From a bacterium (lineage in GTDB: Bacteria > UBA10199 > 2-02-FULL-44-16 > JAAZCA01), in the NCBI GenBank assembly GCA_963674695.2, contig CAXXGI010000002.1:416001-480000 (forward strand): a stretch of DNA of 64,000 bases. Direction: 5' to 3'. Shown piece after piece: positions 2,934 through 16,134 of this stretch (its first letter is position 1; every line of letters starts with the position of its first letter). Both the position numbers and the translations under genes were made by a program. The notes beneath the pieces were generated by a model that worked only from the letters and a program-made list of their open reading frames with translations, made no database searches and was not told where the DNA came from.

Positions 2934-5900
2934 TTACGATTGTTTGCGCATCTCCTCGAGGAGCTGCTCGACCATCGGATGGTACTTCTGGGGGAGTTTG
3001 GTGAAGAGGCGATCGGTCGTGTTCGCCTCGAGATGACGGCGGGCGGTGGCCAGGTAATCGGCGATCTTCGTGCGCAGGCGTTTTTCGATCTCCGGCGTTC
3101 GGTCCGGGCCGGCGAGTTGGGCGATGCTCGCTTCGATCTCCCACGCATTGCGTTCGAGAGCGGCGTAGACCATGCCGCGAAAGCGGTTGGTCATCGCCTT
3201 TGATCCGGTCGCATAGCCCAGTGCACGCTCCGCATGTGTGATGTTGAAGCGGTGTTTTCGCAGCGCGGCCAGTTCGCGTTGCTCCTCCGCGTCGAAGATC
3301 GCCTCGCCCGCTGCTGCCCCCGCGCTCACCTCCGAGGGGTTTCGTCGTGCGCCCTCGCGGATGACCCCATCGATATGGTTGACCGCGATCGTGTCGCTCT
3401 TTTCAAAGCGAGCTCGATCGAAGGCCTGGTCGATCGTGCCCATCAGTTCGCTCACGTTGTAGCGGTCGAACGGGCAGCGCGCGAGCAGATGCATCGTTTC
3501 CGCGGTGAATCCGATATGATGATCATGAGAGGCATTGCGCCGCGCCAAAAAATGCGCGGCCAGCATCTCGATGTCTTCACTGCGCTGGGCCAGTGCCGGA
3601 ACCGAAACGACGCCGCGTGCTTGGATGCGGCGCAGGAGATCTGCGCGCATGCGTCCGGAATGCACGAGGTTTTCCAACGGTTCGTTGGTGGCGAAGAGAA
3701 AGCGGACGTTGACGGTGCGCGCGGCCCCGCGTCCGGCCGCGGGGTTGAAGGGACGCCCCTCCAAGGGTAGCAGCAGGAGTTGCTGCGCTTGCATCGGGAT
3801 GAGTTCCACCTCGTCGAGGAAGAGCGTGCCTCCGTCGAACTCCTCGAGGATGCCCGGCTGTCCCCGGCGGTCTATGCCGGCGATGCCGCTGCCCTCACCA
3901 TAGCCGAAGAGTTTGCCCAACACGATGAGGGGATCGCCCGAGGCGAACTCGGCACAGTTGAATTCGCCCATCGGTTTGTCAGCGCGCGGGCTGAGCGCAT
4001 GGATGACGCGTGCAACGCCGGTCTTGCCCGACCCGGTCGGGCCGACGATGACCACCGGCGCGCGGTCGTGTGCGCGGATGGCTGCATCGCGCAGGCATCG
4101 CAGCCACGACGGGCTCGATCCCATGGCCTGCGTCAGGCGCAGGTGGCGAAACGCTTCGTTCTCCCGCTCCATCGTCTGAATGCGATCGGCCAGCTCCTGC
4201 GTGACGATCGGATCCCATCGGTCGTGGTGCAACACGTCGGAAGCGGCCAGGCCGATCAGTTCCTGGCGCTGCACGATGTCGCGCCCGAGGCGTTCGATCG
4301 CATCGGCGACGGGTTTGATCTCGATATCGGACGGACCGATTGCGGTCGTTTCACCCTCGCGAATGTTCTCCACTGCTTCAGTGAGGATGCGCACCGGTTT
4401 GGCAAAGCGATACTTGAGGAAGATGGCGATGAGGCCGCCGGTGAGGAGGACGGCGACCATCGTGATGATGTCGGTGACGATGGTGCGCCGGATGGTCTCC
4501 TGTATGGGGGTCAGCGAGATGCCCATCTGCAGGGTAGCCATCTGCCGGTCCTTCAGAATGATGGGATCGACGACGGAGACGATGTTGCGGTCGGTGGTGT
4601 CGAAGGTGCCGTAGCGCACGCGGTTGACGACCGACTCCCCCACCTCGCGGGGATCGCTCGAGGCGAAGACCTTGCCGGTTCGGTAGATGCGCGCCCAGGT
4701 CACCGCCTCGTCCTGCACCGCCGACTTGAGAATGGCATCGAGCGAGCGCGATGATTCGGAGATGAGCGCGGCCGCGACGCGGATGTTGAGTTTTTCGATT
4801 TCAACCGTCTTGCGCGAGACAAAGGCATCCATGGTGGCAAAAAAATTGACCAGCTGCACCGTGGTGAGCAGGGCGGCAAAGACGGCCACGAGCGCGGCGG
4901 TGGTGAGTCCCGTCATAAAGGCGATGCCGCGCCGGGCCAGCAGGGCCATGACCGCCAGCAGCAGGATGAGAGCCCCGCGGGTGCAGGCCATCCAGAGCAG
5001 GGCGTTGTGTTTGGCCGTGGTGACGCGTTCGCCGAAGATGGTCGGAACGTGGCGGTAGGGGGTCACAAATGTCAGCGGCGTCAGATGCGCTGCGATCTGC
5101 GCATAGGTGCGGATGGCGTCGTAGGCGCTCTCCTCCTGAATGAAGAACTCTTCGATGTCCATCATCTGTCGGATCTCGGCGGACATCGCCTCATGAAAGC
5201 GCAGCAGGGCTTCCTGTGTCTTGCGAGCGATCTCTGGATCGAAGTCGCTGCGTACGGTGATGGGCCCCATCGGAATCGGTTTTGATGTGGCGATGACGCG
5301 GAATAATCGGCGCTGCTGGGGAGGAAGCGTCTTCAGGATGAAATCGCCGATGCCGATGATGTCGACGGCCCCCTCGCGCAGGGCCTCGAGCGACCGGTCG
5401 TGTGATCCGGTCAGGACGATCCGATTGAAAAAGTCATTGGGGTTGTCGATGCCGTTTTCCAGCATGAGCACGCGCGGGATGAGATAGCCGGAGGTGGAGA
5501 GCTCATCGACGAGGGCGAGGCGCTTCCCCCAGGCGTCGACGATGGTTTCGATGTCGTCATTCTCCCGTACGACGAAGATGCTGTGGTAGCTCTTGCGCCC
5601 CCGCCGAATCTCCGATGCCAGGATCCCGGCTTTTCCCGTCTCCATCGCGGTGATGTGCGAGAGCGCTCCGCCCTCGAACATGTCCAGTTCCCCGCAGGCG
5701 AGGGCGTCGATGATGTCGCGATAGTCCTGCATCAGGACGAGTTCGAAGGGGGTGCCCACCTCGCGGGAGAGGTAATCGATCAGGGGAGACCAGGTCTTCA
5801 CGGCCTTTTCGATCGAACGTCCGCTCATCAGCCCGAACCGGACGGTGTTGGCCTCCACCGAAGAGGATGTGGCGGCGATGCCGACGATGATGAGGGAGAG

Positions 5901-5939
5901 GAGCAGGATATGGCGGAGGAGACGCATCGAGGCCATCAT
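2934..5939 (-). CDS. Membrane-anchored sigma54-interaction (bEBP-like) AAA+ regulator fused to a PhnD-like phosphate/phosphonate-binding domain
   Basis: N-terminal SBP motifs (Y-x-S-IFVVR, STSGYLIP, GSHD); three TM segments; HAMP-like region; Walker A GPTGSGKT; Walker [10 protein letters not shown]; RFLFATN; C-terminal HTH-like region. Confidence 0.85.
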   Translation of the reverse strand: MMASMRLLRHILLLSLIIVGIAATSSSVEANTVRFGLMSGRSIEKAVKTWSPLIDYLSREVGTPFELVLMQDYRDIIDALACGELDMFEGGALSHITAMETGKAGILASEIRRGRKSYHSIFVVRENDDIETIVDAWGKRLALVDELSTSGYLIPRVLMLENGIDNPNDFFNRIVLTGSHDRSLEALREGAVDIIGIGDFILKTLPPQQRRLFRVIATSKPIPMGPITVRSDFDPEIARKTQEALLRFHEAMSAEIRQMMDIEEFFIQEESAYDAIRTYAQIAAHLTPLTFVTPYRHVPTIFGERVTTAKHNALLWMACTRGALILLLAVMALLARRGIAFMTGLTTAALVAVFAALLTTVQLVNFFATMDAFVSRKTVEIEKLNIRVAAALISESSRSLDAILKSAVQDEAVTWARIYRTGKVFASSDPREVGESVVNRVRYGTFDTTDRNIVSVVDPIILKDRQMATLQMGISLTPIQETIRRTIVTDIITMVAVLLTGGLIAIFLKYRFAKPVRILTEAVENIREGETTAIGPSDIEIKPVADAIERLGRDIVQRQELIGLAASDVLHHDRWDPIVTQELADRIQTMERENEAFRHLRLTQAMGSSPSWLRCLRDAAIRAHDRAPVVIVGPTGSGKTGVARVIHALSPRADKPMGEFNCAEFASGDPLIVLGKLFGYGEGSGIAGIDRRGQPGILEEFDGGTLFLDEVELIPMQAQQLLLLPLEGRPFNPAAGRGAARTVNVRFLFATNEPLENLVHSGRMRADLLRRIQARGVVSVPALAQRSEDIEMLAAHFLARRNASHDHHIGFTAETMHLLARCPFDRYNVSELMGTIDQAFDRARFEKSDTIAVNHIDGVIREGARRNPSEVSAGAAAGEAIFDAEEQRELAALRKHRFNITHAERALGYATGSKAMTNRFRGMVYAALERNAWEIEASIAQLAGPDRTPEIEKRLRTKIADYLATARRHLEANTTDRLFTKLPQKYHPMVEQLLEEMRKQS

Positions 5940-6048
5940 AGGGAATGGCCTGCGATATTGTCAATCGCCGAAGACACACTTTACAATCGACGCCACAGCG
6001 ATGTCCGAGACGATGACACAGCACTGTGGGGCCAACGTTCTCCGTATG

Positions 6049-7281
6049 TTACAGATGCTGCACGCTCCCGCCATATTCACGGGCATTGCACTCCTGCAGC
6101 CGCTGGTGCGCCGGCTTGAAAAAGACGTTGAGGAGGGTGACCGCGAAGAGCAGGAGCGCGAAGATGGTCGCCAGCGCAAACCCATAGAATTCATCGCCCA
6201 GGCCGTCGCTGGTGGCGTTGATGGCCAACGGGCCGACGGTTGCAGAGGCGCAGGTGAAAAAGAGGATGATGCCCGCGATCGAGCCGTGCCGGTCGATCGG
6301 GAAGCAGCACATCCCCTTCGAGTTGATCGTCGGATAGATGATCGACATGAAGAAGCCGGATATCGGCAGCAGCATCGTTGCCGGCCAGACTCCGCCGATC
6401 ATGCTCACCACGAAGCAGAGCAGCACGCCGAAGCTGGAAATGGCCAGCAGCATCGCCCAATCGAAGCGGGCCAGGAGCGCTGCGCCCACGAACCGTCCCA
6501 GCGTGCGGAAGACGTTGAACAGGACCAGGGCATAGATCGCCATGAGGTCGTTTTCGCCGCGAGCGATGATGATGAGCGGCATCCAGACATACACCGAGCA
6601 CTCGACCGTGACGTAGAGGAATGCGGCGAGCGAAAACCCGAGCGCATACCGGTCTTTGAGTAGCGCGAATGCCGTGCCGAGCGTGGCGGCTTTTCCGGCG
6701 CTTTCCCGTCCCCGGCGCGAGATGACGGCGGTGGATAGGGCCAGCGCCGCAATCGATATGCCGGCCGCGCAGACGTAGAGCCACTTCCAGCTCGTTCCGC
6801 GCAGGAGCATGAGGGAGACCAGCGCCGGCCCGATGATCGAGCCGATGCCGAAGAAGCCCTCGACGGCGTTCATGATCACCGTGTGGGAGGTGACCGAGGT
6901 GGCAATGCGGCTGATCAGGACGAGCACGCCTGTCTTGAAGATGGCGATGGCCACGCCCGAGGCGATGAGCAGCGCCAGGATGAACCAGTAGTTCTGGGCG
7001 AGGGGAAAGAGGAGGGAGGCGATCGCGAACAGGGCCAGGCCCGCGATGACGACGAAGCGGCAGCCGAGGCGATCGGCCAGCCAGCCCAGAAAGAGCGCCC
7101 CGATCGCGATGGCGGCCATGGTGACATAGTGGAAGGAGCCCGCCCGCGCGAGCGTGATGCCGAATTCCTCGACCAACAGCGGCATGATCACCCCCACCGC
7201 ATTGGTCGTCATCGCGAACATCAGGAAGATCAGGCAGATGATGCAGGTGATGGCGGCGGTGTTTGAGCTCTCTTCATGCAT
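6049..7281 (-). CDS. MFS transporter (FucP/glucose-galactose-like)
   Basis: ~12 TM; motif A GWLADRLGCR; FLYVTVE; MSIIYPTI. Confidence 0.9.
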   Translation of the reverse strand: MHEESSNTAAITCIICLIFLMFAMTTNAVGVIMPLLVEEFGITLARAGSFHYVTMAAIAIGALFLGWLADRLGCRFVVIAGLALFAIASLLFPLAQNYWFILALLIASGVAIAIFKTGVLVLISRIATSVTSHTVIMNAVEGFFGIGSIIGPALVSLMLLRGTSWKWLYVCAAGISIAALALSTAVISRRGRESAGKAATLGTAFALLKDRYALGFSLAAFLYVTVECSVYVWMPLIIIARGENDLMAIYALVLFNVFRTLGRFVGAALLARFDWAMLLAISSFGVLLCFVVSMIGGVWPATMLLPISGFFMSIIYPTINSKGMCCFPIDRHGSIAGIILFFTCASATVGPLAINATSDGLGDEFYGFALATIFALLLFAVTLLNVFFKPAHQRLQECNAREYGGSVQHL

Positions 7282-7545
7282 ATGAACCCTCCGAGGATAG
7301 TGACGAGGTACAATTCTCTATAATGAGTCTCCGCAAACAATTGCAAGTTTCTTGCCACCTAACGAAATGGGCCCAATCCCCCTTTTGGGACATCCCCCCG
7401 CATCGGGGAGGGGCCGAAGACACGGTTCTTGAGCATTCCATCTTCTGCCGGACACAGCCGGGACACAGCGCTCTCCCCTGAAGCCCAGACGAATATATTA
7501 AAGAGAATCGCGCCATTACAGCAATTCGGCGCAAGTCGTATAACT

Positions 7546-7561
7546 TGGCACGCGAATTGCT
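7546..7561 (+). promoter_or_regulatory. Sigma54 -24/-12 promoter
   Basis: TGGCAC-GCGAA-TTGCT, exact match to the TGGCAC-N5-TTGCW consensus, just upstream of the radical SAM gene. Confidence 0.8.
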
Positions 7562-7574
7562 TTGGGAGGGTTGC

Positions 7575-8792
7575 ATGATGAATCAAGGATTGAACAATGC
7601 CTACCGGGGAAGTCAGAAGAAGGACTTTCTGAAAGGGCTCTTACAGGAGACCCGGCTCAATGTCATCGTTACCGTGACGCGCAGCTGTGTGCTCCGGTGC
7701 AGATACTGCTATGCGACTGACCCCGGATGTGAGGGTCGAGGAATCATCAGCGATCATCTCCTGGAAAAGATCATTCGCGATGCCAACGAGACGCGCCACG
7801 ACTCCATCGTCTTTGAGTGGACCGGTGGCGAGGTCCTGTTGGCGGGACGAATGTTTTTCGAACGAGTCCTTGAGCTGCAACGACGCTACATGACCAAGCC
7901 CCATGAAAACAGCGTTCAGACCAGCGGGGCCCTCTACGATGAGGAACTCTATCGGTTCCTAATCGGAAATGGTTTTTCGGTTTCGGTGACGCTCGATGGT
8001 CCACGTGCATTGCACGATGCACAGCGTCCCTATGCGGATGGGCGAGGGAGCTTCGAAACGGTCATGCAGTCGGTGCATCTGCTCAAGCAATTGCAGGGCG
8101 AGTGCGGTGTTCTCTGCACGGTGACGCGCGCATCGCTGCCGTATCTCCGGGCGCTCACGCAGTTTTACCGTCAAGAGGGTATGAGAAAGTGGCACGCCAA
8201 TCCCTATATCTTTGATGCGAATAAACCGGTCGGCGAAGAACAGCTCGGCCTGACGGCATCCGAATACGCGGAGACGATGGAAACGTTTTTTGAGGATTGG
8301 ATTGCATGCGACGATGAGTGCTTGTGTCAGCGCAATGTGACTCAGGCCATCGAAGCCCTGATGGCATTCGATCACACAAGCGTGTGTACGAACAGCGGTC
8401 GGTGTCTCACCAACTTCGTCAACATCTCTCCATCGGGGCGGGCCTATCCCTGCCCCAAGTTTTTGGGCGATGAACGGTTTCAGCTTGGGCAGGTTGATAG
8501 GGATCATCTCGCGCAGATCACCTCCCCTGACAATCCGGTCATGGACCAGCTCATAGACGATCGCATGCGTGCGATCAATCGGTGCATCGATCGGGGTTGT
8601 CCGTTCCTCGGAGCATGCAACGGTGGGTGCCCCTATGCTTCGCTGTTGTCCGGAAATGACGGACGCACCGATCACGTTGATGCCACCTGTGAGGGAAGAC
8701 AGCAATTTCTATCGCAGGTCGATGCCTCTATTCGAAGCCACGGTGGTTGGACGACGGTTCAAGGGAATGTGGACCATGAAGAATTGGCATAA
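7575..8792 (+). CDS. Radical SAM/SPASM domain protein (anSME/peptide-maturase-like)
   Basis: CVLRCRYC (CxxxCxxC); WTGGE; VQTSG; SVTLDGP; SPASM Cys set CTNSGRC...YPC...CIDRGCPFLGACNGGCP...C. Confidence 0.92.
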   Translation: MMNQGLNNAYRGSQKKDFLKGLLQETRLNVIVTVTRSCVLRCRYCYATDPGCEGRGIISDHLLEKIIRDANETRHDSIVFEWTGGEVLLAGRMFFERVLELQRRYMTKPHENSVQTSGALYDEELYRFLIGNGFSVSVTLDGPRALHDAQRPYADGRGSFETVMQSVHLLKQLQGECGVLCTVTRASLPYLRALTQFYRQEGMRKWHANPYIFDANKPVGEEQLGLTASEYAETMETFFEDWIACDDECLCQRNVTQAIEALMAFDHTSVCTNSGRCLTNFVNISPSGRAYPCPKFLGDERFQLGQVDRDHLAQITSPDNPVMDQLIDDRMRAINRCIDRGCPFLGACNGGCPYASLLSGNDGRTDHVDATCEGRQQFLSQVDASIRSHGGWTTVQGNVDHEELA

Positions 8793-8839
8793 CGAGTGAG
8801 AGAAAACGTCACTCACAACCAAGTGAAAGGAGCAATACG

Positions 8840-9151
8840 ATGAAGATCAAAACGAAAGAGGGTGAGAAGAAAACGGTACAGCAGGAAAAGGCAGCATGTC
8901 AGTCGGTGGCCGTAAAGGATAAAGCCGAGCAGAAGACGAATGTCCCGTCGAACTCAGACGTATACCAGAGCTCAAATTCGGTTCTGCAGAAGATGGTGAA
9001 GCTGCAGCGGGAAAGCTGTGGGACAGAAGTGAATCAGACGGAGACGATGGTCGCAAAACGTCAGTGTCCATCGGGCACGACCCACAGCAATGCGTATCAA
9101 AGATGCGGTCCCAACCTGTGCTGTGTCTGTCATGGGGATACGTGTAAGTAG
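8840..9151 (+). CDS. Putative RiPP precursor peptide with Cys-rich C-terminal core
   Basis: Strong RBS (AAGGAG); 103 aa; hydrophilic leader; six Cys in the last 28 residues; directly downstream of the rSAM/SPASM gene. Confidence 0.65.
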   Translation: MKIKTKEGEKKTVQQEKAACQSVAVKDKAEQKTNVPSNSDVYQSSNSVLQKMVKLQRESCGTEVNQTETMVAKRQCPSGTTHSNAYQRCGPNLCCVCHGDTCK

Positions 9152-9218
9152 TTGGTGGATATCCGAAAGCGTGACCGCTGAACGTATATAATTCCATGGG
9201 GGAACAAAGGAGGAATCC

Positions 9219-10502
9219 ATGGGTGGTTTATCACAGGTCGATCTGGGAGGTCTGTGCAAAGCCTTTGAAGTGATGGGTGAGGATGGGTCGGGGCAGAGCT
9301 ATGCGCATCGGATCTGCGACACGCTGGACCTGACGCAGGGGAGCTATTCGCCTTATCTCTATCGCGACTCCTATGGGGATGGAATGGTTCGCGTTCCGAC
9401 CTATGAGGCCATCGGCGGTCGTCGGCAGATTTCAGAGCATCGCTATTTGACCGAATCGGGCGCGATCATGGGCGGGCCCGCTCGCGATCGCTGGGAGGCG
9501 GGGCGTGTCGATTCGACGATCGCGCGCTATTTCATCGCGGCGGCCTTCGGCATCGAGGAACTGACCGATCGCGTCGGGATCGATCTGGGGCTCGTAAAGT
9601 ACCTTCGATCGCTCACCGGGATCTGTGCGAACAATCCGAGCGGCTGCCTTCAGGGGTCCACCGCTTCGCGCACGAAGCAGAAATGGGGCGCGGTCAAACA
9701 GGAGCAGGCGCGCGTCGCAGGGGAGCGCACGCGTCTGGAAGCGCGCCGCCGCGAGGTGCAACAGATCGCGCAGGGCTATCGTTACATCGAGGTGCGGGTG
9801 CAGGCAAAAGATGACCTGCTCGTGAAGACCGCGCACTGGCGCGATCAGCTTGTCACCGATCCGAAGACGTTTGCCGAGTGCGATCGCGCCATCGCGCTCT
9901 ACACGGAGATGATTGCCGTAGCGCAGGCGATGCTCGATCGCGAAAACACCAGCGGTCGTGATCAATGGATGCGCGATCAGATCGCGATGTATCGGACAAA
10001 GATTCCGCAGCAGCGAAAGACGTTCATAGAGGCGGAGCGCAAGCGCCGCGTGACCTCCGGCTTCATCCTCGTGCACAACTACGATAAGTTCTCCGATCCG
10101 ATGGAGAAGGCCGACGCCTGCTTCGAGAAGGTTACTCCTCAAGGCCTGAAACAGCAGTACTGCGCGCTCAAGAATCAGAGCATGATGATCGCAGGTCTGC
10201 ATCGGAAGATGGATAATTATCCGGAGAAGGATGTCTGCTTACGACACGGAGCGCCGCGCGAAAAGAGCTGTACGAGTTCGGATAGAAACCAATGGGGCTG
10301 CACCTGCAAGACGGTTTCAGCCAATCCATATTCAATAGGGAGCGGATGGAGTCACACGGTCTGCGAAGGGACCTATACCTATACGCCGTGTCTGGAATCA
10401 GGAACGAAGGGCAAGGACTACACCGACGACGAACTCATCTCCGGCGCACAGTGGATGTGCTCACAGGCCACGAGCTGTTCCGTCGAATACATCGGGCATT
10501 GA
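9219..10502 (+). CDS. Orphan protein with coiled-coil middle and Cys-rich C-terminus
   Basis: Strong RBS (AAGGAGG); 427-aa ORF; no recognisable signal peptide; ~10 Cys in the last ~130 aa. Confidence 0.75.
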   Translation: MGGLSQVDLGGLCKAFEVMGEDGSGQSYAHRICDTLDLTQGSYSPYLYRDSYGDGMVRVPTYEAIGGRRQISEHRYLTESGAIMGGPARDRWEAGRVDSTIARYFIAAAFGIEELTDRVGIDLGLVKYLRSLTGICANNPSGCLQGSTASRTKQKWGAVKQEQARVAGERTRLEARRREVQQIAQGYRYIEVRVQAKDDLLVKTAHWRDQLVTDPKTFAECDRAIALYTEMIAVAQAMLDRENTSGRDQWMRDQIAMYRTKIPQQRKTFIEAERKRRVTSGFILVHNYDKFSDPMEKADACFEKVTPQGLKQQYCALKNQSMMIAGLHRKMDNYPEKDVCLRHGAPREKSCTSSDRNQWGCTCKTVSANPYSIGSGWSHTVCEGTYTYTPCLESGTKGKDYTDDELISGAQWMCSQATSCSVEYIGH

Positions 10503-10540
10503 ATCGAAAAACGAGAACACACAAGGGAAAGGGGTTGGAT

Positions 10541-11623
10541 ATGGCATTGGGAACGATCATCATCGGTGCGGCGGCGATCGCGGCGGCCATCTGGGGAAGC
10601 GGCTGTGGCGAGCGCGTGCCACTGAAAAAGGAAGAGAAGGATCCGTGTGACAGCGTCGATTGCTCCGGGCACGGGACGTGCATTCCCATCGAGGACCGTT
10701 TCGTCTGTCACTGCGACCGCGGCTACTTCGATGAAGGGGCGCAGTGTCTGCCGGATGAAATCTCCGACGGGGATTTTGATGCGGATTCCGTTGAAAATGA
10801 TACGGATGCGGAGGATGTGGAAGCGGAAACGGAGATCGCTGATGCCGATGGGGAGGATGACGATCAGTTCGAAGAGGAGGATGTGCCGCGTAATCCCTAT
10901 TGCGCAACGCAATATTGTTTGAATGCCACCTCCTATTTCTGTGAATCGAAACTCGGCGACAAGGTCATCGAGTGTGTCGAGGAGGAGTATTGCGATGAGG
11001 GCATGTGTGTCCTGCGCCCCGATGAGGAGGACCCGAACTGTGCTCCCGGCATGCGTTCGGCCTGTGAGGTGACGGATGAATTTGATATTCCGATGTTGGG
11101 AGCGGCGGATCAGAGTCAGAGTCGAAGCCATGCCTATTCCGTTGTCGGATGCTGGCACTCATCGGCATTTCAACTCGATGGACAATATCAGTGTTCCGAC
11201 GATGCCGCCGATGTCCTCAAGGGAATGTACTACATCGGACAGGAGGGGGCGATCGTCGAGAGTTGGATGGCGATGACGATGCAGGTCATCCCCCCGCCGG
11301 AAAAGAGCTTCTATCGCGTCGATGCAAAGATGGATTGGATGACCATCTATCCGGATGCTTGCGACGAAAACTATCCGCCGGCGTTGATGACCTTTTTTGG
11401 GGATGAGCAGTCATCCCTTCTCTCCTATGAGGAATCGTGGAAACGCTGTTTGTATCAGACCGTGGGGGAATTTTCGGCGGCAGGAATCGATGGAGATGCG
11501 GTTCGTCTGCGTTTTCAAAACCATGGCGACAACTGTGATGGACGCAACATTCAGATCAACGGTCTGGCCATCGCGCGCACACGCATCTGGAGCTGCGAGT
11601 GCGTGGAGGATCCGGGGCGCTGA
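10541..11623 (+). CDS. Cys-rich lipoprotein with EGF-like domain and acidic linker
   Basis: Lipobox-like WGSGC; DPCDSVDCSGHGTC...CHCDRGYFDEGAQC is EGF-like; Asp/Glu-rich spacer. Confidence 0.75.
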   Translation: MALGTIIIGAAAIAAAIWGSGCGERVPLKKEEKDPCDSVDCSGHGTCIPIEDRFVCHCDRGYFDEGAQCLPDEISDGDFDADSVENDTDAEDVEAETEIADADGEDDDQFEEEDVPRNPYCATQYCLNATSYFCESKLGDKVIECVEEEYCDEGMCVLRPDEEDPNCAPGMRSACEVTDEFDIPMLGAADQSQSRSHAYSVVGCWHSSAFQLDGQYQCSDDAADVLKGMYYIGQEGAIVESWMAMTMQVIPPPEKSFYRVDAKMDWMTIYPDACDENYPPALMTFFGDEQSSLLSYEESWKRCLYQTVGEFSAAGIDGDAVRLRFQNHGDNCDGRNIQINGLAIARTRIWSCECVEDPGR

Positions 11624-11641
11624 TCTGCAGACATCATCCAC

Positions 11642-11671
11642 AAAAAAGCCCCCGCTTTCGCGGGGGCTTTT
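11642..11671. terminator. Intrinsic (likely bidirectional) terminator
   Basis: AAAAAAGCCCCCGC-TTTC-GCGGGGGCTTTT stem with A and T tracts, between convergent genes. Confidence 0.85.
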
Positions 11672-11706
11672 GATTGTTAACAAAAGCAAAGTCAGATCGC
11701 TTTTGT

Positions 11707-11790
11707 TCCCTCCCCTTTGTAAGGGGAGGGTTAGGGTGGGGTAGATCCGAGATCTACCTCCCCCGTCCCCTCCTTACAAAGGAGGGGGGA
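11707..11790. repeat. Palindromic REP/MITE-like element, family B (CCCTCCCCTTTGTAAGGGGAGGG...)
   Basis: Inverted pair of hairpin units; related copies at 47204-47317 and 53347-53385. Confidence 0.8.
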
Positions 11791-11795
11791 GGATT

Positions 11796-12329
11796 CTATT
11801 CACCCTGCCAGGTTGCGATCGAGACTGGCATCTGGTTCGTGGCGAGCGTGCCGATCATGCAGACCTTGACCTGCTCGACATCCGGACGGCCTTCGACGCG
11901 ACAGTCTTCGATGGAGCAGATGGAGACATTCCAGGATCCATTTTCATTTTCCTTCGGTTCGATTGCCGGAACCTCAGGGGCCTGTCCCATGGCGGGGACA
12001 TAGACGAAGGTCACCTGGACGGATTCGTCGAATTCGATCTCCTCGTCCTTTTCCGCCGGGGTCAGCACGATCTCTTCGGCGGCTGCGGTTATCTGGCCTT
12101 TGACCTTGTCGCTGGAAACGTTCCAGCCATCAGGAAAATTGAGTCCCATCTCACTGCAGGCCTTCACAACGAAATCGGCCGGCGCGGGTGCTGGAGCGGC
12201 GACATCTTCGGTGACACCGGTGGCGAGTTCTCCCTCGGTGTCGGTCTCATCCGTCGTCATCTTCGTGCAGGCGCCCACGGTGAACGCCAACGCGAGGATG
12301 AGCAGCATGTTGAGCATCGATTTCTTCAT
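11796..12329 (-). CDS. Hypothetical lipoprotein
   Basis: MKKSMLNMLLILALAFTVGAC lipobox; acidic mature region. Confidence 0.75.
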   Translation of the reverse strand: MKKSMLNMLLILALAFTVGACTKMTTDETDTEGELATGVTEDVAAPAPAPADFVVKACSEMGLNFPDGWNVSSDKVKGQITAAAEEIVLTPAEKDEEIEFDESVQVTFVYVPAMGQAPEVPAIEPKENENGSWNVSICSIEDCRVEGRPDVEQVKVCMIGTLATNQMPVSIATWQGE

Positions 12330-12388
12330 AGGCTTCCTCACTTTCAGTTCTCACGCGGGGTGGATCGCTCGATCCGGCCCTGCGTTGG

Positions 12389-12961
12389 TTATGCGTTTCG
12401 GATCGCCAGGGCGAACATGACGATCGACCATCCGGCGAAGAGGATGTTGATGCCGACGAGCAATCCCATGGCCCAGACCGCATCGCCCGGCAGGCCGCTC
12501 CAGATGACGGCGCCGAGGATCACGGCGATGACGCCGGAGAAGCAGAGCCATCCCCAGCCGGGCGTTGGGCGCAGCTGGAAGGAGGAGACGAACTTGAAAA
12601 CACCCTCTATAATGAAGAGCAGCGCCACGAGCGCGGTGAGCGTGAGGATTCCCTGCTGCGGATAGACGAGCAGCAGGATGCCTGCGGCGACGTAGAGCAG
12701 CCCCCCGATGAGGCGCAGCCAGAAGCCACCGCCCGAACGGGATTGCACGGCCTTGACGAATGAGGCGATGCCGCCGATGAGCAGCACCCAGCCGAAGAGG
12801 AGTTCCAACGTGATCGTCGCCACGAAGGGGAGCGCGATGGCAGTGCATCCGACGAGGATGGTGATGAGCCCCAGTGCGAGGATCCATTTCCAGTTGGGTT
12901 TGAGGGCGCGAGCGGCGTCGGTGATCGCGTCGATCGATGCAGATTGGGCCTGAGTCGACAT
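12389..12961 (-). CDS. hdeD: HdeD family acid-resistance membrane protein
   Basis: Six TM; NWKWILALG...P...GWVLLIGG...GLLVGINILFAGW pattern; strong RBS. Confidence 0.85.
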   Translation of the reverse strand: MSTQAQSASIDAITDAARALKPNWKWILALGLITILVGCTAIALPFVATITLELLFGWVLLIGGIASFVKAVQSRSGGGFWLRLIGGLLYVAAGILLLVYPQQGILTLTALVALLFIIEGVFKFVSSFQLRPTPGWGWLCFSGVIAVILGAVIWSGLPGDAVWAMGLLVGINILFAGWSIVMFALAIRNA

Positions 12962-13124
12962 GAAATCCTCCTTGGAAGGTGGGCGAAGAGCGCAGACTCT
13001 GTGTATATCAATTCTGGAGGGGAATCAAGGGAACAGAAAAAATGCTGCCAGGACAGGCATTGCCGCCGCTGCTGCCTTTTGCTACACAGGGAGTGTTCCA
13101 TACATCATACGTCAGGGAGGAAAT

Positions 13125-13556
13125 ATGATGCGTCTTTCGACCGCTGCCATGCTGATCGCGATCATCCTGCTGGGGACTCCGGCATTTGCCCAGGAGGCGG
13201 CCAAGCCAAAGGAGGAGGTGCGCGTCCCCAAGAAACTCGAGCTGCCGATGAGCGAGGAGGAATACGAACGCAAGATGCGCAGCGCCAACATCTTCATCTA
13301 CACGGGCATCGCGCTCACCGCCGTGGGCGGGCTCGCGGCCATCGGCGGCAGCATCTACTGGGCCGCGAAGAAAAACGATCGCACCGGAGCGGCGATCATC
13401 ACGGGTTCCGGAGCGGCGCTCGGAATCGCCGGCGGTGTGCTCACCGCCGTGGGGTATCACAAACGAAACACGACCGAGATGCGCGCCTATTCCGTTGCGC
13501 CCGTGATCGATCCCAGCCGGGGGCTCTATGCCCTCCAGCTGCAGACGCGGTTTTAA
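13125..13556 (+). CDS. Hypothetical exported/membrane protein
   Basis: RBS GGAGG; signal peptide ending PAFA; two Gly-rich hydrophobic helices; ends in a beta-strand-like LQTRF. Confidence 0.7.
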   Translation: MMRLSTAAMLIAIILLGTPAFAQEAAKPKEEVRVPKKLELPMSEEEYERKMRSANIFIYTGIALTAVGGLAAIGGSIYWAAKKNDRTGAAIITGSGAALGIAGGVLTAVGYHKRNTTEMRAYSVAPVIDPSRGLYALQLQTRF

Positions 13557-14801
13557 TTAGAACGTCGTAAATGGGAGTGTGTTCAGCAGTACCATCGATT
13601 GCACCTGAAACCACTTGTAGCGCGTGGTGTCAGTGCCGAAGAAGGTGTGGCGATCCCAGGGCGTGAGGAAGAGGTTGAAATCGCGCTCGGACAGGCTCGG
13701 CTCCGGAGTAGCGCCGAGCGCTTCGTAGGTGAAGGTATAGGTCATCATGCTCGTCCCATCGGGGAGCACGCGTTCAATCGTGATGAGGTTTCCCTCCGCA
13801 TCATATTCATAATAAAAGCTGGAGTTGAGTTCAAAGTCCACCTGGTTATCACCCGGAAAGAAATTGGTATCGACGAAAAAGTCGGTCTGTTCCGGGTGAA
13901 ATCCATCCGCATCATCATGATGGAAGAACTCATACGCATATCGCAGCTCGTTGGTCACCGTGCCATTCTGATACGTTGACAGGATCATCTCCACATCCGC
14001 GAGGAGTCCCTCGATCGGTACGCTGAAATTTGCTTGGAAGCTTGAGACGGTATCGCCCGTTTGAACGTCCTTGTTGTAGACGATCTCCATGTTGTCGTGA
14101 GGGGAATAGTGTTTTTCATTATAGGGGTAGCTGTCCCACGAGATGAGGCTCCAGTTTCCGTTCGGATATTTGCTGAGCCACTTCCCATTCGGCAGATCGA
14201 TACGAAGATCGGACCAGCCGGTAATACTGTAGTCGATCGCGGTCGTATCGACGTCCCCGTTTAAAAACTCTTGGACGATGGTCGAGATGCGTTCCTGTGT
14301 ATCGTAGGTGAACTGTCTCGTGAAATACGTGTGCTCCTGTTCGATCAGGCGCGACTCTTCGTCATAGGTGAATTGCTCCTCGAATGCGGAGAAGGGGAGG
14401 TTTAAATCCTGCCAGCTCTGCGGCGGATCGTGGGCGATCAGTTCGATGAGTCGTCCCTCCTCATCGTAGTCGCAATCGATGAGCGGCGTGGTGACCCCAT
14501 CGATCGTCACCGAAAAGGAGGTCATGCGTCCGAAGGTTGGCGCGGGATCGGGATCGGGATCGGGGTCCGGATCAGGATCGGGCGGAGGTGTTGGATCGGG
14601 ATCCGGCTCAGGATTTGGCGGCGGTACAGGATCGGGGGTGGGGCCTGCCGGCGGATCCGGCGATGGATTCGGCGTCGGACACGTTTCACACGCGCCGGGA
14701 GTCGCCGCGGCCGTGTGGCTGCCACAGGCGGTCACCATATACATCAAGGGCGTCGCCACGCAGATGGCGATGATGAGACGCGCGGTCATTCGTGATGACA
14801 T
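13557..14801 (-). CDS. Lipoprotein with Pro/Asp linker and YD/RHS-like repeats (paralog 1)
   Basis: VTAC lipobox; (PD)n linker; YDEEGRL, FTYDEESRL and YEYDAEGNL repeats. Confidence 0.75.
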   Translation of the reverse strand: MSSRMTARLIIAICVATPLMYMVTACGSHTAAATPGACETCPTPNPSPDPPAGPTPDPVPPPNPEPDPDPTPPPDPDPDPDPDPDPAPTFGRMTSFSVTIDGVTTPLIDCDYDEEGRLIELIAHDPPQSWQDLNLPFSAFEEQFTYDEESRLIEQEHTYFTRQFTYDTQERISTIVQEFLNGDVDTTAIDYSITGWSDLRIDLPNGKWLSKYPNGNWSLISWDSYPYNEKHYSPHDNMEIVYNKDVQTGDTVSSFQANFSVPIEGLLADVEMILSTYQNGTVTNELRYAYEFFHHDDADGFHPEQTDFFVDTNFFPGDNQVDFELNSSFYYEYDAEGNLITIERVLPDGTSMMTYTFTYEALGATPEPSLSERDFNLFLTPWDRHTFFGTDTTRYKWFQVQSMVLLNTLPFTTF

Positions 14802-14838
14802 GGACGTATTCCTCCACCGGTTTCATCCTCCAGAAGTA

Positions 14839-14865
14839 TTATCGGTGAATATCGCGAGAAGTTGC
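14839..14865 (-). promoter_or_regulatory. Sigma28/FliA-like promoter motif
   Basis: GCAAC-N14-ACCGATAA on the minus strand, ~40 nt upstream of the ATG at 14801. Confidence 0.6.
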
Positions 14866-14898
14866 GCGGTGAAAACCGCCGTTTCTACATTGTTTGTA

Positions 14899-16134
14899 TC
14901 AGAACGATACCATCGGTGCAGTGCCGAGCGAGAGCATATTCTGGACGAAGGCCCATTTGAGCATGTGGGGATTTCCGGAGAAGATCGTTCGGGCATCCCA
15001 AGGGTCGGTGATGCCGAAGAATTCATCGCGCGCGAGCGTCGGTTCCGGCTCGAAGCCGAGTATCTCATAGCTGAAGGCATAGGTGATCATGGTCGTCCTG
15101 TCGGAGAGTTTCCGTTCGACAGAGATGAGATCGCCCGCTTCATTATACTGATAGAAGAAGGTGGAGTTGAGGTCGAACAGGACGTGGTCATCGCCCGCAT
15201 CCGGATCGATGTCGACGAAGAACTCCACCTCGCGCAGGCGGATCGCTCCATCGACGAGATCATAGAAATATTCATAGGCATATCGAATTTCAAAATCGGT
15301 GATCTCGGAGCGGATGATCATTTCGACCTGTTCCGGGATTCCGTCGACGTGTTGTCCCGTTTTGGCGCGATAGCTGCGCAGGAGGTCCTGTCCGGTGGAG
15401 TCATAGAAATAGGCCCCTTCGGTTCCATCGGTCTCATCGACATATTCTCTGGAATAGCGCTGCGGGTCGTTGGTTGGTTCGAAGAAGAGCCAGGTGCCCG
15501 TCGGGGTCCTGTTCATGCCGGTTCCATTCGAAAAGTCGACGACGATATCGTAGATGGGGGCATTGGGATATCGGATGTCCGTCCATTCCAAGGGATGATT
15601 GTCCAAATCGCGTTCGATCTGGATGAGCCTCCCTTCCTCATAGGAAAAATGCTGAATGCGATCGCTCTGTTCGGCAGCGATGAGCTGGTCCTGCTCGTCG
15701 TAGGTGAATGACCATTCGTCCGGATAGATCGGAAGGCCCAAGCCTTGCCAATCCGCGGGCAACTCGTGCACGCTCATCTCGGTCAGGCGGCCTTCATCGT
15801 CGTAGTCATAGTTGGCGAGCGTGTGGGTGAGTCCATCGTAGGTCGCGGTGACGGAGGTGAGACGATTCGCATGCGGTTCCGGATCGGGCTCCGGGTTCGG
15901 CTCGGGCTCGGGTTCCGGACTGGGTTCTGGCTCTGGCTCGGGTTCTGGCTCGGGTTCTGGCTCCGGGTTTGGCGGGGGTGACGGACTCGGCTCCGGCTGT
16001 GGTGGACAGGTCGTGCACTCATCGCAGGGTGTTGCAGCGCTGTTGTTGCCGCAGGCGGTCACGATGTACATCGCCGGAAGGGCGATGAGGATGATGACGA
16101 GTATCCTGATGATGGATCGGTGGTGTGGTGACAT
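14899..16134 (-). CDS. Lipoprotein with Pro/Glu linker and YD/RHS-like repeats (paralog 2)
   Basis: VTAC lipobox; (PE)n linker; YDYDDEGRL and FTYDEQDQL; aligns along its length with 13557..14801. Confidence 0.75.

Follow-up and report, generated by a model that had tools for sequence, protein, structure and literature searches.

We propose that a radical S-adenosylmethionine (SAM)/SPASM enzyme and the 103-residue peptide encoded downstream of it form a two-gene unit, in which, judging from sequence comparison, the enzyme probably links the ring of each histidine to the β-carbon (Cβ) of Asn or Asp at the second position after it. The likeliest product would be a set of triceptide-like His-to-Asn/Asp Cβ rings and not sulfur bridges. 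The unit lies in the window, i.e., the whole stretch of 64,000 nucleotides (nt) of contig CAXXGI010000002.1 analysed here, in which all coordinates without a contig label are positions, and the window's own genome (G000) is 100% complete. The locus is arranged as follows:

7546-7561, + strand: sigma-54 -24/-12 promoter-like site, a perfect TGGCAC-N5-TTGCT
7575-8792, + strand: putative radical SAM/SPASM maturase, 405 amino acids (aa), residue 38 being the first Cys of the motif
8840-9151, + strand: putative precursor peptide, 103 aa, 8 Cys
9219-10502, + strand: orphan protein of a lineage-restricted family, 427 aa, 15 Cys
10541-11623, + strand: EGF-domain lipoprotein-like protein, 360 aa, 22 Cys (PF00008, 22.7 bits against a cut-off of 21.5)
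11644-11671, no strand assigned: strong GC hairpin flanked on either side by A/U tracts (folding z = -5.65)

A preliminary description of this DNA had offered the four genes as an undescribed peptide-modification pathway; the enzyme with its adjacent precursor behind a sigma-54 site stands, whereas the two orphans probably fall outside it. Looking for conserved adjacent peptides had been proposed there as a check, and such peptides recur throughout the family. A single-sequence locus search of the genome contigs returned nothing, and an alignment used as query recovered 21 genome and 53 metagenome loci, of which 61 close and 6 distant ones were compared, leaving out seven weak fragments (L034, L035, L084-L088). 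At 57 of the 61 close loci, and at none of the six distant radical SAM loci, the enzyme is accompanied by an adjacent co-oriented short open reading frame (ORF) with His-x-Asn/Asp repeats; among the four exceptions one shows the truncated end of such a peptide and two lie on contigs whose sequence begins within or at the enzyme gene. The enzyme of genome G007 is likewise adjoined by a His-x-Asn/Asp ORF. Counts were made on 46 non-redundant precursors, a set from which five partial peptides and the exact duplicates had been removed and to which the G007 peptide had been added. In these, Asn or Asp stands at the +2 position of 381 out of 438 histidines, as compared with a mean of 99.8 and a maximum of 127 in 1000 shuffles of the cores, and the commonest spacing between motifs is four residues (171 cases), i.e., the motifs are in tandem. 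The cysteine richness that the preliminary description took as its signal is not the family-wide feature: 14 of the 46 cores have no Cys, eight have one and 24 have two, and two of the three closest neighbours in view have Cys-free cores. Close to the N-terminus, 42 of the 46 precursors have a hydrophobic LGxxxP segment, which is missing in the Deltaproteobacteria clade and in the window peptide. Outside the enzyme and the peptide, common neighbours are limited to close kin, and only these two genes recur across lineages. Within the window's phylum the enzyme was found in 3 of 93 genomes, in each case preceded by a sigma-54-like site and followed by the peptide gene. No NCBIfam model names any of 11 precursors tested, and an Atlas search with one family precursor gave unnamed clusters only, below 0.8. 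Other repeat precursors are listed in PMC9062424.

The 103-aa peptide is best described as a putative, divergent member of these partner peptides. Both of its histidines lie in the motif, H82-S-N84 and H98-G-D100 (shuffle P = 0.007). Its N-terminus is charged, a leader helix motif occupies residues 48-56 and the core would start at about residue 75, so that six Cys (76, 89, 94, 95, 97 and 102) fall within the last 29 residues. The C-terminus, HGD-x-C, is shared with 5 of the 46 relatives, and the leader segment resembles that of the closest clade (L015, L036, G007 and G059).

The enzyme appears to belong to an unnamed radical SAM/SPASM family that has no NCBIfam model and is present in Bacteroidales, Chlorobiales and Deltaproteobacteria metagenome-assembled genomes. 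A protein search gave 25 sequences, the enzyme itself included, at E ≤ 8e-59, the next following at 4e-35, and the corresponding BLAST gap lies between E ≤ 4e-67 within the family and 5e-42 outside it; FEWTGGE, HxNxY, CxxGGRCLTNF, CPKF and GCPY are common to its members. The cluster cysteines are C38, C42 and C45 together with eight SPASM Cys (271, 277, 293, 337, 342, 348, 352 and 372), all eight of which align with those of the anaerobic sulfatase-maturating enzyme (anSME), the cluster ligation being read from this alignment. As the preliminary description had stated, no RiPP recognition element (RRE; RiPP, peptide made by the ribosome and then modified after translation) was detected in the enzyme, in which 37 residues, with one short helix in the model, precede the motif. 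None of the NCBIfam cut-offs was reached among the 25 best models listed: anSME (TIGR03942) came first with 184.5 of 349.45 bits and the DynA model (NF041298) second with 172 of 450, the daropeptide model NF038005 gave 110 of 650, PapB 116 of 340, and the models of enzymes that form three-residue cyclophanes (3-CyFE) all stayed below, with YhhB at 70 of 445, AmcB at 81 of 425, GrrM/OscB at 89 of 310 and FxsB at 66 of 370 bits. The predicted structure (pLDDT 89) is closest to anSME (TM-score 0.77), followed by ChlB (0.75) and CteB (0.70). Six positions of the catalytic site have been defined on CteB (PMC10288494); at these the enzyme reads Y-T-Q-T-P-K, anSME F-Q-Q-S-D-F, a DarE-annotated protein H-H-Q-S-D-K and CteB F-F-T-S-H-Q, and the residues specific to the family's active site are T83, T139, N209 and Y354, present in all 25 sequences, and H207, P294 and K295, present in 23. 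In trees built with FastTree the enzyme groups with those of G007, L036 and L015 (Shimodaira-Hasegawa support 0.86-0.89), apart from the sulfatase-linked L097 and L100 and, in both trees, from DarE. No family members were found in viral_contigs, and none of the plasmid and phage matches listed exceeds 30% identity to the family. Full-text literature searches returned no account of the family or of the chemistry of His-x-Asp/Asn arrays beside radical SAM enzymes; the networks or supplements of Sugiyama 2022 and Miller 2022 may include the clade.

That the enzyme is an orphan anSME is almost certainly wrong and already largely refuted, even though its top NCBIfam, PDB sequence (4K36-4K39) and fold matches are all anSMEs and the eight-Cys SPASM layout is the same. 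Its score stays under the anSME cut-off, it branches away from the sulfatase-linked enzymes, and the formylglycine-sulfatase motif [CS]xPxRxxxxTG occurs in no G000 ORF longer than 300 aa and at no family locus, which extends genome-wide the earlier remark that the window holds no sulfatase; two weak PF00884 matches in G000 are alkaline-phosphatase-superfamily-like and lack this motif. The positions of anSME Gln64 and Asp277, which have a catalytic role, are occupied by Thr and Pro in the enzyme, and at the latter Pro (P294) is found in 23 of the 25 sequences and Asp in none.

Among the closest known systems are those of cyclophane synthases. HaaB, YhhB and HtkB make rings between His C2 and Cβ (PMC11499958), YxdB makes Tyr-x-Asp rings (PMC11499958, PMC11002830), and PMC12912966 concerns a different triceptide. 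Like these triceptide synthases and ChlB (PDB 9GM3/9GMC), the enzyme is an RRE-less radical SAM/SPASM protein encoded next to a precursor in which aromatic-x-x motifs are repeated; ChlB, itself an RRE-less cyclophane synthase, has the closest fold of any RiPP enzyme, and the triceptide (3-CyFE) motif is found both in H82-S-N84 and H98-G-D100 and at the 57 family loci. The differences are that the motif here is His-x-Asn/Asp, that the scores are far below the YhhB, AmcB, GrrM and FxsB cut-offs, that the enzyme has WTGGE in place of HGGE and HxNxY in place of DFLLP, and that no exporter or protease is linked. From the sequences compared, the unit would probably work like a triceptide system, while neither the named models nor the active site place it among the triceptide synthases. 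The dynobactin enzyme, which joins a His nitrogen to Asn Cβ (PMC11002830), and DarE, which works independently of an RRE (PMC10705402), also score closest to anSME and yet make cyclophanes (PMC10288494). The window enzyme shares with DynA and DarE the anSME-like, RRE-less build and with DarE the Lys at catalytic-site position 6; unlike them, it scores below the cut-offs of 450 and 650, its peptide has no Trp motifs and its branch is separate from DarE.

The motif is also found in phages. In the radical SAM module of the Thermus phages Cumys and phiMa (PMC11437467), Cumys_13 has 54 His-x-Asp/Asn motifs and the DUF483 gene Cumys_11 is 35% identical to a partner gene at the G007 locus, whereas the Cumys_12-type enzyme belongs to another lineage (27% identity over 110 aa, E = 7e-5) and no DUF483-like gene was found in G000. 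The available part of PMC11437467 proposes DNA modification for the phage module and does not mention the motif. In the Cumys locus L101 (694-2984), apart from these 54 motifs, the Cumys radical SAM protein bears such motifs in its own C-terminal tail, as does that of phiLo.

The preliminary description had left open thioether and carbon-carbon crosslinks, of which the latter is now the likelier. Thioether chemistry would link Cys sulfur to Cα, Cβ or Cγ as in sactipeptides and ranthipeptides, at least at the window locus and for example from C97 to D100. In its favour the peptide has six core Cys with C-x-x-D spacing at 97-100, the enzyme scores 116 bits with the PapB model, and, like the CteB and PapB maturases, it stands beside a Cys-containing peptide. 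As 14 of the 46 cores are Cys-free and the G007 and L036 peptides have no Cys at all, as an eighth SPASM Cys is present where CteB-type enzymes have seven-Cys layouts (PMC10878394, PMC10352776), with a site left open on auxiliary cluster I, and as the anSME Asp is replaced by Pro, thioether chemistry is very unlikely, and sulfatase chemistry as well. The absence of an RRE from the enzyme and the difference between its Y-T-Q-T-P-K and the F-F-T-S-H-Q of CteB (PMC10288494) point the same way, and Cys is not a conserved feature of peptides in the family.

It could also be argued that the same pair acts upon the same His-x-Asn/Asp target by another reaction, such as α,β-desaturation, epimerisation or oxidative decarboxylation of Asp/Asn, or by linking tandem motifs to each other. 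The family's active-site residues (T83, T139, N209, Y354, H207, P294 and K295) match no characterised enzyme compared, and the DUF483-like partner gene of G007, L036 and G059 hints at extra steps. We nevertheless consider another chemistry unlikely, since aromatic-x-(Asn/Asp) is the pattern of triceptides (PMC11499958), anSME and ChlB have the nearest folds, and a search of G000 gave no DUF483-like gene. In G059 a 3.8-kb locus (L104, contig C28, 1495-2619, - strand) carries a His-x-Asn/Asp precursor and the DUF483-like gene with no radical SAM gene, and no member of the enzyme family was detected in G059, which is 89% complete.

Several points weigh against His-to-Asn/Asp ring formation by this pair. 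The active site is unlike that of known cyclophane synthases: T83 corresponds to His in DarE and ChlB, P294 to Asp in DarE, and H207 to Glu in DarE and to Asp in ChlB. The cyclophane-synthase profile, with His before GGE, is thus not seen (Thr83 in 25 of 25; compared with DarE and part of ChlB). H207 was considered as the X3-specificity residue (HtkB D214/HaaB H204) and rejected, as the published supplement aligns that site to anSME D196, which is F213 here. The monophyly of the family is unstable, with a support of 0.94 in one tree and the long-branch outgroup L080 inside the family in the other, and the closest enzymes (P0002, P0004 and P0017, 45-51% identity) fall outside the neighbourhood comparison. 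That comparison is partly circular, the ORF filter having demanded at least 2 motifs, and many of its loci come from related Bacteroidales and are not independent. The window peptide is an outlier as well: it has 2 motifs, as compared with 4-12 in complete relatives, is 14-21% identical to them, and has a six-Cys core that occurs in none (maximum 2 Cys). A hidden Markov model built from the other precursors ranks it first of 24,914 G000 ORFs, with E = 0.73; the family leader profile picks its residues 44-57 with a position-specific scoring matrix P of 0.048, and the leader pattern was derived from the same five sequences used to test it.

These features, the two motifs, the weak similarity and the patchy occurrence in 3 of 93 genomes of the phylum, would also suit a decaying cassette whose peptide has drifted, with few motifs and extra Cys, and is no longer processed. 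We give this little credence, since the enzyme retains every one of the 11 cluster Cys and is intact, identity to orthologs is 65-68% at codon position 2 as opposed to 30-36% at position 3, the promoter is perfect, the peptide gene has a Shine-Dalgarno (SD)-like GAAAGGAG and both His remain in the motif.

The perfect -24/-12 promoter reported earlier proved sound. As perfect sites in G000 number 35 at spacer 5, as compared with 1-3 at spacers 3, 4, 6, 7 and 8 and with 2-6 in five shuffles, the sigma-54 motif is a genuine signal there, and a gene with an RpoN box was found in G000. The first ATG of the radical SAM gene lies 13 nt past the -12 box, therefore the SD-like GGGAGG would precede the expected +1, leaving the mRNA nearly leaderless. 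In the G007 ortholog 12 nt separate box and ATG, and sigma-54-like sites precede the G007, L036 and L015 operons too. Among 32 scored perfect sites in G000, seven have an ATG 8-15 nt past the -12 box, e.g., C1:749673 and C3:280050, and near-leaderless sigma-54 mRNAs may be a habit of this lineage. The adjacent sigma-54 activator was not assumed to drive the promoter, as it is without GAFTGA; the 1001-aa product of this gene (2934-5939, - strand) is a fusion in which a phosphonate-binding domain and membrane segments are combined with the sigma-54 activator domain, and five GAFTGA activators are encoded elsewhere in G000. The genes do run in one direction to one hairpin, as described earlier; it is likely a bidirectional terminator and is absent from the list of a simple terminator scan. 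The impression that the first genes are less GC-rich was borne out, although mildly: against 1498 proxy genes the radical SAM gene has a GC content of 0.552 (12th percentile) and the peptide gene 0.513 (6th), the orphan 0.589 (35th), the lipoprotein 0.560 (15th) and the flanking genes 0.63 (85th), and codon adaptation of the locus genes is inside the normal range. One independent contig, which may be the source sample itself, covers 7300-11734 with 0 differences, and Rfam gave no match across 5000-14000.

The 427-aa protein and the EGF lipoprotein are probably an unrelated, lineage-specific passenger pair that shares the promoter. The preliminary description had counted them as pathway genes, and a four-gene pathway, in which they would tailor, display or protect against the peptide, agrees with their co-orientation, the gaps of 38-67 nt, the single terminator and the lack of an own sigma-54 site before the 427-aa gene at the window locus. 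Yet neither gene was matched at any other family locus (many contigs are short), and a perfect TATAAT lies at 9187-9192, ahead of the 427-aa gene. In G004, contigs with an overlap of 47 nt put their homologs side by side downstream of carB and behind a sigma-54-like site, and no member of the enzyme family was detected there (94% complete, 490 contigs); a paralog of the 427-aa protein in G000 (C1:98674-99783) also has a sigma-54-like site of its own. Homologs of the 427-aa protein occur in 2 of 60 relatives (G004 and G012), that of the lipoprotein in one of 21 (G004), and the 427-aa protein has no Pfam, NCBIfam, PHROG or Atlas match and no relative in a large protein search. We therefore see a slim chance for a four-gene pathway.

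For the two-gene unit we suggest the following sequence of events. Sigma-54 would drive a single transcript, and the RRE-less enzyme would grip the leader helix (residues 48-56) directly, like the RRE-less DarE and ChlB. The 5'-deoxyadenosyl radical would take hydrogen from Cβ of N84 and D100, and the resulting radical would add to the imidazole of H82 and H98, either at C2 as in HaaB and HtkB or at nitrogen as in dynobactin. The two auxiliary clusters would accept the extra electron, with a mass change of -2 Da per ring. The six core Cys would not be substrates of the enzyme and may form up to three disulfides after export; their order, C-C-CC-C-C, resembles that of a cystine knot in which the first loop is unusually long. 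Unlinked housekeeping machinery would see to export and to cleavage, for which K73-R74 is a possible site. No C39 transporter scored above cut-off in G000, in line with the earlier statement that no dedicated exporter is visible, and the divergent gene of the major facilitator superfamily (MFS) at 6049-7281 was not adopted as the exporter, since it is missing near the G007 and L015 loci. It is a possible, if doubtful, extension that this enzyme lineage, whose active site is different, came to His-Asn/Asp stapling independently of both the phage His-x-Asp enzymes and the known cyclophane synthases, and that here, in an uncultured lineage, it staples a six-Cys core into a sigma-54-controlled hybrid of disulfide knot and imidazole cyclophane.

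Further radical SAM loci occur in G000. At C2:698914-700807 (- strand) a second sigma-54-driven radical SAM/SPASM gene is followed by a 74-aa peptide with a Cys/Asp tail, and C1:530186-537076 (- strand) carries SPASM-type radical SAM, S41-peptidase-like, MFS-like and B12-radical-SAM-like genes, labelled by inspection. In the window, 11706-11790 is a repeated palindromic element resembling repetitive extragenic palindromes (contig depth jumps; hairpin z = -3.3), and 13557-16134 (- strand) holds a tandem of two similar genes for lipoprotein-like products, which have Pro-rich linkers and match RHS repeats weakly.

The two-gene RiPP-type unit is real and uncharacterised; it is a variant of cyclophane-type systems and an atypical, Cys-rich member, which extends known RiPP logic and is not a new kind of system. 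Being small, it is easily expressed, and the two-motif peptide gives a clean mass-spectrometric readout; if our reading is true, this peptide would be the simplest test substrate for His-x-Asp/Asn systems. Arrays of His-x-Asp/Asn beside radical SAM enzymes are found in gut Bacteroidales, Chlorobiales, uncultured Deltaproteobacteria and phages, and the family may contribute a crosslink of the His-Asn/His-Asp type or else a new reaction.

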